Source: Nostoc linckia NIES-25 (GTDB lineage Bacteria > Cyanobacteriota > Cyanobacteriia > Cyanobacteriales > Nostocaceae). From it: DNA of 32,000 nt. Shown piece after piece: positions 10,449 through 14,579 of the stretch. The DNA lies in assembly GCA_002368035.1 (NCBI GenBank), contig AP018222.1, forward strand, positions 2,879,079 to 2,911,078. Reading direction: 5' to 3'. Under the pieces are notes generated by a model. It was given only the letters and a program-made list of their open reading frames with translations. It was not told the DNA's origin and searched no databases. The position numbers and the translations under genes are program-made. Numbering within the stretch: position 1 is the first letter of the stretch; the number at the start of each line of letters is the position of its first letter.

Positions 10449-10883
10449 ATGGAACCTTTAACTACTGCGGCAATCGCTGTTGGCACTATAATTGCCACTA
10501 AAGCCTTAGAAAAAACAACCGAAAAGGTCACAGAAAATTTATTAGATAAGACTGGTAACTTTCTCGTCACCTTGAAAAAACAGTCTCCCCAGACTGTAGT
10601 GGCGATAGAGAAAGCACCAGACCAACCACTTGATTATGGCAAAGCTGTATTAGAAGTGGAATCAGCGGCTAAAGCTAACCTTGAAGTGGCACAAGCTATA
10701 GAAGAATTGGCACAAGCAGCGAAAGCGGAACCGCTACCCAATTTGGCTGAAGTTCTTCAAAATATAGCAGAAGCACTTAAATCACAATCTCCAACGAATC
10801 AAATTAGAATTGAGACAATCGAAAAAATTGTTAATTTTGCTCAGAGAGATATTAATGTAGAAACGCAAAATATCAATATTTGA
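10449..10883 (+). CDS. 144-aa helical protein with a hydrophobic N-terminal helix; candidate N-terminal (executioner/adaptor) module of the downstream STAND NTPase
   Basis: Starts MEPLTTAAIAVGTIIATKALEK, followed by an Ala/Glu/Lys-rich helical body and the tail NQIRIETIEKIVNFAQRDINVETQNINI. It ends at the TGA 10881-10883, in the same frame as the 10986 ORF, with no further stop between them. Confidence 0.6.
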   Translation: MEPLTTAAIAVGTIIATKALEKTTEKVTENLLDKTGNFLVTLKKQSPQTVVAIEKAPDQPLDYGKAVLEVESAAKANLEVAQAIEELAQAAKAEPLPNLAEVLQNIAEALKSQSPTNQIRIETIEKIVNFAQRDINVETQNINI

Positions 10884-10985
10884 CTGAAGTCGTCCGAACG
10901 GGAACGGACAAAGTTAACTCCCACAAAATATATTCGTTATCGCGGTTCCGTCAACTTCGTCGGGCGAGAAACAGAACTGACAATA

Positions 10986-13760
10986 ATGCATGAAGACTTA
11001 CAGCGCGAAAATTATGTAGCAATAGCGGGAATGGGCGGCGTGGGCAAAACTGAATTAGCTACCCAATACGCCAAAAAATATGAACAATATTATGGGGGAA
11101 TTGCTTGGTTTAACGACAGAGAAACCAATCTCGCCGCCGAAGTTTTAGAGTTTTTCTCATTGCAGTTCGGTTTGGAGATTCCCCAAGAATTAGGAGACAA
11201 ACGTTTAAACCTTCAAGAACAAGTCGCCTGGTGTTGGTCTAAATATCCTAACTCTAACTTGCCGATTTTAATCGTCTTCGATGACGTAACTGATTTAGAC
11301 AACCTCCGCCAAGTTGTTCCTAACGATAACCGTTTCCGAATCTTAATTACAACTCGACTGCGGCATTTAGACCCAAATTTTATTCAAGAAATTTCCTTAG
11401 ATGTTCTCTCGCCGCAAAAAGAACCAGGCAAAGCTTTAGAACTGTTAAAACGACTGTTGGGGGAAAAAGATAAGCGAGTTGAAAATCAACCACAAGCCGC
11501 AACACAAATATGTGAATGTCTAGAATATTTGCCCTTGGGCATAGAATTAGTGGGAGGCTATTTGCTAGGCGACCCGCAAATATCTTTAGATATAATGTTT
11601 GGGCGATTGCAAGAACGTAAATTAGCAGAAGCAGCTTTACAAGACCGGGAAACCATCAATTCAACTCAACTAGGAGTCAAAGCCGCCTTTGCTTTAACTT
11701 GGGAAGAACTCGACCCCCTGGCGCAACAACTAGGAAGATTTTTGAGTTTATTTGCTCCCCAACAGATTCTTTGGGATTTGGTGATTTGGGTAGCGATAGG
11801 TGGAGAAGAAGGAGAAAATCAGGAAGAAAGACAGCTAACTTGGTCACAAAATGAATTAAACGAAGCTAAAAAGCAACTCTACGGGCGCAACTTGCTGCAA
11901 CTCTTAGAAGAGAGAGAAGGATGTTATAAAATTCATGCTTTAGTGCGGTGGTTTTTGCAAGAGCAGTTAGCGACCTCTGGCGAGATGAAATCAGTTTTGG
12001 AAACAACTTTCGCCACCGCGATGATAAGTTTTGCCCAAATACTTCCTAATTCTCCCACTTCTGAGCAGATTGAAAACCTCAGAGATATTGTTCCCCATCT
12101 CGAAGACTTGGGAAACCGTTTAATTGCAGAGATAAAAAAAGTAAAAGAGGTACAGATAATTTCTCCAGCATCAGTTCCCAACAATCAAGTAATTTGGATA
12201 TTTGAGGGAATAGGAAGATTTTACGTAGGACAGGGATTATATAAATTAACAGAACCTTGGCGTGAGCAATGCCTAAATGTTTGCCAAGCTCTATTTACTG
12301 GCGACCATCCCGATGTGGCTAGTAGCTTGAAAAATTTAGCAGTACTCTACGATAGCCTTGGGCGGTACAGCGATGCCGAACGTCTGTACTTTGATGCCCT
12401 AGCTATGAGAAAGCGCCTGTTCCCTGGCGACCATCCCGATGTGGCTGGTAGCTTGGAAAATTTAGCTTTACTCTACAAAAGCCAAAGGCGGTACAGCGAT
12501 GCCGAACCTCTCTTAATTGAAGCCCTGGCAATGACAAAGCGCCTGTTTACGGCAATGACAAAGCACCTGTTTACTGGTGACCATCCCGATGTGGCTACTA
12601 GCTTGGACAATTTAGCAGGACTCTACCTGCACCAAGGGCAGTACAGCGATGCCGAACCTCTCTACATTGATGCCCTAGCAATGAGAAAGCGCCTGTTTCC
12701 TGGCGACCATCCCAATGTAGCTACTAGCTTGAACAATTTAGCTTTACTTTACAATATCCAAGGGCGGTACAGCGATGCCGAACCTCTCTACATTGATGCC
12801 CTGGCAATGACAAAGCGCCTGTTTACTGGCGACCATCCCGATGTGGCTACTAGCTTGAACCATTTAGCTTTACTCTACCTGTGCCAAGGGCGGTACAACG
12901 ATGCCGAACCTCTCTACATTGATGCCCTGGCAATGACAAAGCGCCTGTTTCCTGGCGGCCATCCCAATGTCGCTAGTAGCTTGAACAATTTAGCTGAACT
13001 CTACCGAAACCAAGGGCGGTACAGCGATACCGAACCTCTCTACATTGATGCCCTGGCAATGACAAAGCGCCTGTATCCTGGCGATCATCCCAATGTGGCT
13101 AATAGCTTGAACAATTTAGCTTTTCTCTACCTGTCCCAAGGGCGGTACAGCGATGCCGAACCTCTTTTAATTGAAGCCCTAGCAATGACAAAGCGCCTGT
13201 TTACTGGCGACCATCCCGATGTGGTATTAAGCTTGAACAATTTAGCTTTACTCTACCTGTCCCAAGGGCGGTACAGTGATGCCGAAACTATTTTAATTGA
13301 AGCCCTAGCAATGACAAAGCGCCCGTTTATTGGCGACCATCCCGATGTGGCATTAAGCTTGAACGATTTAGCTTTGCTCTACAATAGCCTTGGGCGTTAC
13401 AGCGATGCCGAACCTCTGTACATTGATGCCCTGGCAATGAGAAAGCGCCTGTATCCTGGCGGCCATCCCGATGTGGCTAGTAGCTTGAACAATTTAGCAG
13501 CACTCTACGATAGCCTTGGGCGGTACAACGATGCCGAACCTCTCTACATTGATGCCCTGGTAATGTGTCAACGGGTATTAGGCGTTAATCATCCTTCTAC
13601 GGTGACAGTTCAAAAAAATCTAGCAATTCTGCAACAGCAGTTAACTCCCCGTGCAGTCTGGATGCGTCGCTTAGGTTATCTTCTGCAAATCTTGTTAGCG
13701 ATATTAATTCTACCGTTTTACCTACTATGGCGATTAGCTAAAAAATTAATTCGTAATTAA
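10986..13760 (+). CDS. NLR-like STAND NTPase: NB-ARC domain, about 11 TPR (TPR_10/12, kinesin-light-chain type) repeats and a C-terminal hydrophobic anchor
   Basis: Carries the Walker A motif GMGGVGKT, a Walker B region ILIVFDDV, then ILITTR. Repeats follow the pattern GDHPDVA.SLNNLALLY..QGRYSDAEPLYIDALAM.KRLF. In-frame sequence upstream of the ATG (YRGSVNFVGRETELTI, back to 10884) is still NB-ARC-like, so the native N-terminus lies upstream of 10986. Confidence 0.85.
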   Translation: MHEDLQRENYVAIAGMGGVGKTELATQYAKKYEQYYGGIAWFNDRETNLAAEVLEFFSLQFGLEIPQELGDKRLNLQEQVAWCWSKYPNSNLPILIVFDDVTDLDNLRQVVPNDNRFRILITTRLRHLDPNFIQEISLDVLSPQKEPGKALELLKRLLGEKDKRVENQPQAATQICECLEYLPLGIELVGGYLLGDPQISLDIMFGRLQERKLAEAALQDRETINSTQLGVKAAFALTWEELDPLAQQLGRFLSLFAPQQILWDLVIWVAIGGEEGENQEERQLTWSQNELNEAKKQLYGRNLLQLLEEREGCYKIHALVRWFLQEQLATSGEMKSVLETTFATAMISFAQILPNSPTSEQIENLRDIVPHLEDLGNRLIAEIKKVKEVQIISPASVPNNQVIWIFEGIGRFYVGQGLYKLTEPWREQCLNVCQALFTGDHPDVASSLKNLAVLYDSLGRYSDAERLYFDALAMRKRLFPGDHPDVAGSLENLALLYKSQRRYSDAEPLLIEALAMTKRLFTAMTKHLFTGDHPDVATSLDNLAGLYLHQGQYSDAEPLYIDALAMRKRLFPGDHPNVATSLNNLALLYNIQGRYSDAEPLYIDALAMTKRLFTGDHPDVATSLNHLALLYLCQGRYNDAEPLYIDALAMTKRLFPGGHPNVASSLNNLAELYRNQGRYSDTEPLYIDALAMTKRLYPGDHPNVANSLNNLAFLYLSQGRYSDAEPLLIEALAMTKRLFTGDHPDVVLSLNNLALLYLSQGRYSDAETILIEALAMTKRPFIGDHPDVALSLNDLALLYNSLGRYSDAEPLYIDALAMRKRLYPGGHPDVASSLNNLAALYDSLGRYNDAEPLYIDALVMCQRVLGVNHPSTVTVQKNLAILQQQLTPRAVWMRRLGYLLQILLAILILPFYLLWRLAKKLIRN
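12291..13574 (+). repeat. ten near-identical 126-bp (42-codon) TPR-coding units in tandem, with one 24-bp internal duplication
   Basis: Exact register: 12291 + 24 + 9 x 126 = 13449 is the start of unit 10. The nucleotide strings GGCGACCATCCCGATGTGGCT and GGGCGGTACAGCGATGCCGAACCTCT recur almost unchanged. Confidence 0.9.
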
Positions 13761-14007: not shown

Positions 14008-14262
14008 ATGAGTAGCATTAATATTTTCTTACCTGACTCAATGAAAAGTTTTGTTGAAGAACAAGTGGCTCAAGGTGGCTACGGTTCAGTTAGCGAATAT
14101 CTACAAGAATTAATTACTCAAGATCAAAAACGCAAGATGCAAGAACATGTAGAAGAACTTTTAATTGCAGGACTTGAAAGTGGAGAGCCAATAGAAGTTA
14201 ATGATGAATGGTGGCAGCAAAAACGCACAAACTTGATAAATCAATTGCATCAAGAAAAATAA
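14008..14262 (+). CDS. parD: ParD-family (ribbon-helix-helix) type II antitoxin
   Basis: 84 aa. The N-terminus MSSINIFLPDSMKSFVEEQVAQGGYGSVSEYLQELI is typical of ParD/COG3609 antitoxins. Its stop overlaps the toxin start (TAATG at 14260-14264). Confidence 0.8.
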   Translation: MSSINIFLPDSMKSFVEEQVAQGGYGSVSEYLQELITQDQKRKMQEHVEELLIAGLESGEPIEVNDEWWQQKRTNLINQLHQEK

Positions 14263-14579
14263 TGACAAAGCGAATAGTCATTACACCCAAAGCCAGTTTA
14301 GATATTGATGAGTATTTTGTTTACATTGGCCAAGAAAACCCGGACACAGCTCTTTTGTTCTTTGACTCTGTAAGAGAAACATTTGCACAGTTAGCAAGAA
14401 TGCCTGGAATGGGTAGCCGTTATCCTTTGAATAATCTTCGTTTACAAGGTTTACGTAAATGGGCTGTTAAGGGATTTAAAAAGTATCTAATCTTTTACTT
14501 TGAGCGAGATGAAAGCATTGAAGTTGTGCGGATTCTCTATGCTGGGCAAGATATAGAAAGGATTTTAGAACAGGAATGA
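14262..14579 (+). CDS. parE: ParE/RelE-family type II toxin
   Basis: Starting at the ATG at 14262 gives 105 aa (MTKRIVITPKASLDIDEYFVYIG...GFKKYLIFYFERDESIEVVRILYAGQD), a ParE-like pattern. The ORF-track start at 14208 lies inside parD. Confidence 0.8.
   Translation: MTKRIVITPKASLDIDEYFVYIGQENPDTALLFFDSVRETFAQLARMPGMGSRYPLNNLRLQGLRKWAVKGFKKYLIFYFERDESIEVVRILYAGQDIERILEQE

Follow-up and report, generated by a model that had tools for sequence, protein, structure and literature searches.

How is a large NLR-like sensor translated when its reading frame has no start codon of its own? This question is raised by a locus in the cyanobacterium Nostoc linckia NIES-25, examined within a stretch of 32,000 nucleotides (nt) (assembly GCA_002368035.1, contig AP018222.1, positions 2,879,079 to 2,911,078), which is referred to as the window and whose own numbering is used for the locus. 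On the + strand an ATG at 10449 opens 144 codons that extend to 10880 and are closed by a TGA (10881-10883). This TGA is the sole interruption of a frame that continues through 34 sense codons (10884-10985), which encode LKSSERERTKLTPTKYIRYRGSVNFVGRETELTI and include zero ATG, GTG or TTG, to the earliest canonical start past the stop (ATG 10986, codon 35 after the TGA) and on to 13760. An initial annotation of the sequence had described two open reading frames (ORFs) that share one frame and are split by a TGA and 34 start-less sense codons. Every statement it made at the sequence level was confirmed, including that the FVGRE.EL segment precedes the first ATG, as follows from the coordinates of FVGRETEL (10956-10979). 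The P-loop GMGGVGKT lies at 11028-11051, and Pfam assigns to the extension an NB-ARC domain (PF00931, E=1.6e-14, residues 38-227) and about 10 TPR_12/TPR_10 units (TPR_12, E=1.9e-125). The hhGRExE motif, Walker A GxxGxGKT, NB-ARC profile and C-terminal repeat sensor of a STAND NTPase of the NB-ARC/TPR (NLR-like) type are all present, and the short upstream protein (the effector) and this NTPase have a collinear, adjoining layout.

The best explanation of the comparative data is that the locus is a single recoded gene, being neither two genes nor a broken gene. Its expression is probably by programmed readthrough of the UGA, which would yield the Bell-like effector in abundance and an effector-NLR fusion as a rare product. 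The initial annotation had offered two alternatives, a recent nonsense inactivation or two products arising by TGA readthrough, and it is the second that the comparative data favor. Its interpretation was thus partly supported, and a family-wide modular cassette with many types of sensor was not anticipated in it.

The stop codon and the protein that it ends

A lone in-frame stop between two functionally linked domains could be the mark of a recently inactivated fused NLR, that is, a nonsense pseudogene, or of a sequencing or assembly error, and some copies elsewhere have plainly decayed (L049, L083, L086b, L088, L097 and L111). At 10881-10883, however, an error is not supported, since the identical 144-amino-acid (aa) protein and a base-identical junction are found in Logan DRR315857 and DRR315858, two independent read-set assemblies, so that the junction is the same in three assemblies. 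Nostoc sp. ChiSLP01, whose orthologous protein is 94% identical, retains the TGA, the reading frame and the lack of a start, and relative to the window its 34 codons carry both synonymous and non-synonymous differences. When 5.8 billion proteins were searched with a query made of effector, linker and P-loop with an X at the stop, 483 homologues were returned, the short family having a size of about 131-147 aa. The best 120 of these 483 are all stand-alone proteins of 125-158 aa that cover at most 68% of the query; none of the 120 runs on into an NTPase, and no close relative is fused. The position of the stop is therefore a conserved trait of a protein family. The codon at the TGA, which the initial annotation had proposed to record in orthologues, is a sense codon in no close relative, and it is TGA in 85 of 85 instances of the RNA element described below. 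Because the stop is kept across genera and orders, the short product belongs to a conserved family and coding selection persists 3' of the stop, nonsense inactivation and assembly error were rejected and have next to no chance of being correct. Frameshifting or transcriptional slippage was also dismissed, the downstream ORF being in frame 0 with no slippery run.

The short protein starts with MEPLTTAAIAVG (MEPLT...G12), in which M1, E2, P3 and G12 are invariant or nearly so in alignments of 20 and 60 sequences. An AlphaFold2 (AF2) model is all-helical with seven helices, of which helix 1 spans residues 3-22, and has a predicted local distance difference test (pLDDT) score of 76 that is low in the tail region, where the tails fall into discrete classes 3' of the conserved domain. 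Bell, Hell and Bab domains, like several antiphage NLRs, begin with a conserved MEPIS helix whose central glycine is essential for function (10.1101/2024.11.07.622273), and the Saupe laboratory has reported that the fold beyond helix 1 varies widely with very low similarity (10.1101/2024.11.07.622273). Neither Pfam nor PADLOC assigned the 144-aa protein to a family, and Foldseek of the AF2 model against the PDB gave nothing better than E=2.3. A profile search of PDB sequences gave a sole match below 0.001, to 6r60 (Nostoc WD40 constructs, residues 27-48 in both), which was rejected as expression-tag/TEV-like. Among 1.84 billion representatives a profile search found 347 relatives, nearly all of 60-170 aa. 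Distant relatives are truly fused to dynamin-like GTPases or HEAT-repeat proteins (P0168, P0214, P0216 and P0151), and thus the N-domain is tolerated at the N-terminus of large NTPases. Its motif and genomic behavior indicate that the N-domain is probably Bell-like, with homology unproven. The suggestion that its family might be undescribed agrees with the lack of a Pfam or Foldseek match, whereas the MEPIS-like start and the motif-pair paralogues considered below make it probable that the family has been described.

A conserved RNA element behind an invariant UGA

The same junction recurs in cyanobacterial genomes and metagenomes as 85 instances of an RNA element of ~42 nt, 78 of them distinct, with the consensus TGA CTR nAG TCG YCY GAM SGG GAA CGG RYA AAG TTA AnY CCC. 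Its identity in independent assemblies, its retention in the ChiSLP01 orthologue and its recurrence at 78 distinct junctions put the arrangement far beyond chance. The hairpin GTCCG-AACGGGAA-CGGAC (10892-10909) that had been pointed out downstream of the TGA in the window was confirmed and lies within this covarying element, the spacer being 8 nt long. In the alignment the stem of 5 base pairs (bp) is paired in 98.6% of cells and shows compensatory changes at three of its five pairs (UA:24/CG:17; GC:38/CG:3; CG/UG/UA); none of 500 shuffles matches the observed stem score, and slid controls fall to ≤56%. The TGA is exactly 8 nt before the stem in 85/85 instances; metagenomes supplied 36 of these, through a search pattern in which the stop and the N-domain were left unspecified. 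The +4 base is C in 69 of the 78 distinct junctions, and the first codon past the TGA is CTA in 32, CTG in 29 and CCA in 6 of them, with a few others including ATC, GTA and GAA. A covariance model built without the stop codon and searched against 627 kilobases (kb) gave 49 hits, one per cassette locus and none elsewhere, and 49/49 were directly after a TGA, a codon that ends only 26% of the long ORFs in the same loci (background).

The element and the sequence that follows it are conserved in different ways. Over the 13 codons of the element the entropies at the three codon positions are 0.52/0.36/0.46, such that the third position is as constrained as the first and second, while from codon 25 on they are 0.87/0.60/1.34, a typical coding pattern, and the F-V-G codons across 46 junctions have an entropy of 0 at positions 1 and 2 and of 1.0-1.8 at position 3. 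In Nostoc flagelliforme FACHB-838 (L056, 4437-4482) a 1-nt insertion in the loop alters the peptide, the RNA sequence is kept and a 728-codon NB-ARC frame is open. Selection therefore acts on the element as RNA and, past it, on a protein sequence read in the same frame as the upstream ORF.

Two further pairings can be drawn around this hairpin. A candidate outer stem, UGACU/AGUUA, includes the stop codon itself and is 91.6% paired, and covariation cannot test it because its 5' strand is invariant. A candidate pseudoknot between the loop GGGA and a downstream UCCC has an ambiguous register (86% paired in the better of two, 66% in the other) and hardly any compensatory change.

With a conserved hairpin that has a G-rich loop within ~10 nt 3' of a UGA, the element also resembles a bacterial selenocysteine insertion sequence (SECIS), in which case the fusion would be a selenoprotein. 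This is very improbable, given that a search of Rfam gave no SECIS match even at E≤10 and no matching family for the element, that the site is occupied by neither Cys nor another sense codon in any homologue, that it is in a linker and not at a redox position, and that a tRNA scan of the window found no tRNA gene. The cyanobacteria covered by literature surveys were reported to have selD/ybbB and to lack selenocysteine decoding.

A locus scan using one genome per species gave 80 loci. At the 47 distinct genome junctions that end in TGA, the same frame is open for at least 100 codons in 45, and for up to 1230, and the other two frames are shut within ≤78 codons. In 40/52 NB-ARC junctions the 24 codons ahead of hhGRExE are free of ATG, GTG and TTG, and the first codon after the TGA varies (with CTA, CTG, CCA, ATC, GTA and GAA among the forms) and hence is not a start. 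The downstream ORF (open in 45/47, start-less in 40/52) is therefore an in-frame continuation that is under protein-coding selection and lacks a start of its own.

The carriers include Nostoc, Brasilonema, Nodularia, Calothrix, Scytonema, Stigonema, Rhizonema, Tolypothrix, Aulosira, Iningainema and Aetokthonos, as well as the non-heterocystous Merismopediaceae, Microcystaceae, Xenococcaceae and Gloeothece/Cyanothece PCC 7424, and the element was absent from viral contigs. The downstream sensors comprise several NB-ARC/TPR types, NACHT-HEAT-NCC-H, NACHT, TPR only, CHASE2, a transmembrane protein with a PsbP-like domain and another with an FGE-sulfatase domain, and there are at least 30 combinations of tail and sensor, all with TGA. 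Several genomes, among them those of Calothrix PCC 7103, Scytonema tolypothrichoides and Brasilonema bromeliae, carry more than one cassette and differing sensors, and two contigs each have two complete cassettes ~3-5.6 kb apart (L086 at 4014 and 9658; L117 at 5196 and 8123). In the complete genome of Gloeothece citriformis/Cyanothece PCC 7424 (CP001291.1, near 4,301,340-4,303,900; L120, 4433-4477) the NLR gene behind the cassette is annotated from a GTG within the FVGRD motif, which is a truncated call. In L083 (4421-4429) and L107 of Brasilonema angustatum a second stop is present two codons on (TGA CTG TAG) and an otherwise intact NB-ARC frame continues; such a copy is either in decay or has a double stop. 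On a metagenome contig (JAAUYH010089630.1, about 690-1960; L106) the cassette stands behind an alpha/beta-hydrolase of ~300 aa with an HSMGG serine motif, which replaces the helical domain and is without an amyloid-like tail, and the frame leads to a different P-loop protein. As judged from its sequence, this locus shows that the cassette is a general connector of effector and sensor, independent of amyloid tails.

Such free combination of tails and sensors suggests exchange at the junction, and together with conservation at the nucleotide level it could mean that the element has no part in recoding. It would instead be a site of RNase processing, an attenuator, or a protein-binding or recombination site, with frame continuity a by-product of fixed spacing. 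We consider this quite unlikely. It leaves unexplained the translation of sensors that have hhGRExE and no start, as well as the constant UGA-C and 8-nt spacing, and a promoter and terminator scan gave matches at the level of chance, with no terminator between the ORFs and no terminator-like T-run. Recombination of cassettes is compatible with readthrough, is probably its consequence, and both may coexist.

Two-gene paralogues and a proposed mechanism of readthrough

Paralogues of the effector that end in TAA or TAG serve as a natural control. They have no covariance-model hit and no in-frame continuation, and their NLR is located 25-500 nt downstream with its own ATG and an N-terminus that copies the tail of the effector. 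In one example the tail ...KLADKIGQVVMPGGTGNIQNQSF pairs with MPEDSGKFADKIGAFAAPGAQVNIGTQII..., which is followed by a linker, ...QLTPTKSIPYRGSVHFVGRETEL, as in the window. In the homologous linker DNA of the two-gene paralogues the Leu codon of the element is CTA or TTA, whereas in cassettes it is TTA and never CTA. When the tail was scored against the N-terminus of the NLR, the two-gene loci had a median of 41.5, with 22/24 at ≥33, while in the window and 44 other cassette loci the tail scored against the first 80 downstream residues had a median of 17 and a maximum of 24, equal to background. A repeat of the tail motif at the N-terminus of the adjoining NLR is absent in cassette loci. Hence an NLR bears the motif exactly where its locus has no UGA cassette, and the two layouts are mutually exclusive. 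It follows from the sequences that a cassette sensor could gain the motif only via translation through the stop. The layout of the two-gene paralogues is, by its sequence features, the Bell/BASS-NLR arrangement of Dyrka et al. (2020).

That same arrangement suggests how the locus might instead encode two separate proteins. As a rule the two genes of a Bell/NLR pair overlap or are tightly coupled in one operon (Dyrka et al., 2020), and ribosomes might terminate at the UGA and the NLR be made by reinitiation or from an independent non-canonical start in or just past the element, with the hairpin providing translational coupling. A terminating ribosome would open the outer stem UGACU/AGUUA, an in-frame GTG, TTG or ATG does occur before hhGRExE in 12/52 NB-ARC junctions, and an AUU codon (the I of an IPY motif) is frequent in NB-ARC type 1. 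The canonical codons in those 12 are, however, at non-conserved positions, with scattered GTG/TTG at codons 1, 16, 18, 19, 20 and 23, there is no conserved start-like codon (the first codons being CUA, CCA, GAA and others), and the IPY/AUU codon is absent from the other sensor types. The NLR so produced would also lack the N-terminal motif that is borne by every two-gene paralogue, and the exclusive use of UGA is left unexplained. Expression as two separate proteins is accordingly unlikely.

By programmed readthrough, in contrast, most ribosomes would stop at the UGA (10881-10883) and release a free 144-aa Bell-like, membrane-targeting effector with a C-terminal signaling motif, and a minority would read through and make a fusion of effector, motif, NB-ARC and TPR, ~1,100 aa long. 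Readthrough would be promoted by the weak UGA-C context, the CUR triplet and the hairpin, possibly a pseudoknot, which at 8 nt past the stop would be at the mRNA entry channel of the ribosome. Poole, Brown and Tate reportedly found in 1995 that UGA-C is the weakest termination context in E. coli. The rare fusion would be the sensor, in which the TPR array senses a trigger and the NB-ARC domain oligomerizes, and the clustered N-terminal motifs and Bell domains would nucleate the abundant free effector, resulting in membrane damage and cell death (abortive infection). The step from nucleation to membrane damage is proposed by analogy to HET-S/NWD2 and Bab/Agp. What the comparison shows is that the UGA, the element, the frame and coding selection across the junction are conserved, that a start codon is lacking, and that the two-gene layout excludes the cassette; the occurrence and rate of readthrough, the residue put in at the UGA (expected to be Trp, possibly Cys, Arg or Gly), amyloid templating and a death function are inferred from this pattern. 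The motifs of effector and sensor could not drift apart because one DNA copy serves both products, and the conserved cassette would allow effectors and sensors to be exchanged through recombination. UGA is read solely by RF2, and because of this the ratio of the two products could respond to the state of translation, such as phage interference or stress; if so, the stop codon itself would be part of the sensing circuit.

Several points weigh against this proposal. All of the support for a readthrough protein is comparative, and the documented cases of such RNA-stimulated readthrough are on eukaryotic ribosomes, with no established example in bacterial cellular genes to our knowledge. With 5 bp the hairpin is short, compensatory support is absent for both the pseudoknot and the outer stem, and the local fold is no stabler than shuffles (z=−0.44), for which reason the case for structure rests on covariation and not on energy. 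The canonical starts in 12 of the 52 NB-ARC junctions count on the same side. The templating rationale is also not universal, because the hydrolase of L106 has no amyloid-like tail.

It is an even question whether the dedicated, portable recoding cassette (UGA-C, 8-nt spacer and hairpin/pseudoknot) is the first conserved cis-acting stimulator of readthrough in cellular bacterial genes, turning effector-sensor pairs into single two-product genes with a set ratio. Should readthrough be confirmed, it would be a rare programmed case in cellular bacterial genes, with a covarying signal and dozens of natural variants on the 70S ribosome. It would also be a third way to wire an NLR to a death effector, besides two-gene amyloid pairs and all-in-one fusions, with a fixed ratio and identical motifs, and would explain both the many cyanobacterial NLR genes that seem 5'-truncated or are called pseudogenes and the many Bell-like proteins that seem to be without a partner motif. 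The cassette could be a compact tool with which to set protein ratios in cyanobacteria.

Related systems and features of the locus

The closest known systems are the Bell/BASS-NLR pairs (Dyrka et al., 2020, 10.1101/2020.01.06.895854) and Bab/Agp (10.1101/2024.11.07.622273), which have in common with the cassette loci that the effector is small and helical and that its hydrophobic helix 1 starts with MEPxx. Further shared traits are a short variable C-terminal motif, an adjacent collinear NB-ARC or NACHT sensor, and a distribution over filamentous and colonial cyanobacteria in which one genome has many paralogues. They differ in that the NLR of the cassette loci is without a start codon or a motif of its own and is in frame behind a UGA and an RNA element. 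Neither "stop codon" nor "readthrough" is mentioned by Dyrka et al. (2020, 10.1101/2020.01.06.895854), whose pairing screen would miss cassette loci. All-in-one NLRs with an N-terminal Bell or CC/HeLo-like domain (Avs2, several bNACHTs, plant CC-NLRs and fungal HeLo-NLRs) have the same architecture as the predicted readthrough product, and they differ from it in being encoded by a continuous ORF with one product, whereas here the stop would also free the effector.

The signal itself resembles the "type II" readthrough signals of alphaviruses and coltiviruses, in which UGA-CUA or UGA-CGG is followed by a stem-loop ~8 nt 3' (PMC3542737). Common to both are UGA-C, a CUA/CUG triplet, and an 8-nt spacer ahead of structured RNA (PMC3542737), and the gag-pol pseudoknot of murine leukemia virus (MuLV) has the same spacing between stop and structure as the cassette (PMC3542737). 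Viral readthrough, like that proposed here, makes a short product in abundance and one with a C-terminal extension only rarely. It differs in that the cassette has a much shorter stem, is found in cellular genes of bacterial chromosomes, involves the 70S ribosome and RF2 because its host is bacterial, and would produce an immune effector and sensor rather than a capsid and polymerase. In the coat/A1 gene of phage Q-beta, the bacterial ribosome reads a UGA at a low rate to give a minor extended form of an abundant protein. That is natural leakiness of UGA for which we know of no dedicated conserved 3' structure, and it concerns a phage gene, whereas the cassette is part of a modular family of host genes. 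A full-text search of the literature on readthrough together with cyanobacteria, Nostoc, NLR, NACHT or amyloid signaling found no description of such an arrangement. The components, Bell/BASS-NLR proteins and programmed readthrough, are of known kinds. What appears to be new is that they are combined, and that cellular bacterial genes have a conserved RNA signal of the readthrough type.

Features of the Nostoc linckia locus, in window coordinates
Feature	Position	Strand	Basis
Short product, 144-aa all-helical Bell-like effector (probable), ends in TGA	10449..10883	+	ORF; 7 helices in AF2 model, pLDDT 76
N-terminal hydrophobic helix MEPLTTAAIAVGTIIATKAL, MEPIS-like, central Gly12	10449..10508	+	M1, E2, P3, G12 (nearly) invariant
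Variable C-terminal tail, class A IETIEKIVNFAQRDINVETQNINI, candidate amyloid-signaling (BASS-like) motif	10809..10880	+	Discrete tail classes; low pLDDT
UGA stop, proposed readthrough site, next base C	10881..10883	+	TGA in 85/85 element instances
8-nt spacer CUGAAGUC, consensus CUR-nAG-UC	10884..10891	+	Alignment; spacing invariant
Hairpin, stem GUCCG/CGGAC, loop AACGGGAA	10892..10909 (arms 10892-10896, 10905-10909)	+	Pairing and covariation
Conserved 3' tail AAAGUUAACUCCC	10910..10922	+	AGUUA or UCCC alternative pairings possible
			
Proposed readthrough extension, 958 codons: linker, NB-ARC, TPR array, hydrophobic C-terminal tail	10884..13760	+	Translation, Pfam, codon-position pattern
hhGRExE motif FVGRETEL of NB-ARC	10956..10979	+	Ahead of first canonical start
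NB-ARC NTPase domain	10995..11564	+	PF00931
TPR sensor array, ~10 units, 126-nt period, 85-86% identical	12018..13631	+	Pfam TPR_12/TPR_10/TPR_NPHP3; Tandem Repeats Finder
C-terminal hydrophobic segment AVWMRRLGYLLQILLAILILPFYLLWRLAKKLIRN	13653..13757	+	Read from translation

The tandem 126-nt TPR units (~10) at 12298-13565 include an internal 24-nt duplication (12527-12574, TAMTKRLF/TAMTKHLF), and such close identity among the repeats is a typical trait of NLR sensors that diversify fast. The strongly hydrophobic C-terminus LGYLLQILLAILILPFYLLWRL (13653-13757) resembles a membrane anchor, which is unusual in a cytosolic NLR. A TTG-initiated ORF of 35 codons (10879-10989, +1-nt frame) spans the junction, its TTGA overlapping the TGA and its own TGA overlapping ATG 10986; it is probably meaningless because the same frame closes after 3-55 codons in related loci. 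The chromosomal neighbors are housekeeping genes, for HemD, CoaE, TldD, IleRS and a Rieske oxygenase upstream, and for a DEAD/DSHCT helicase, ProC, SepF, YggS, CbiQ, Der and an M50 protease downstream. Immediately 3' of the NLR, at 14008-14579 (+), are a ParD antitoxin (84 aa) and a ParE toxin (123 aa), and ParDE also adjoins the module at the orthologous locus of Nostoc sp. ChiSLP01, where it is on the opposite strand.

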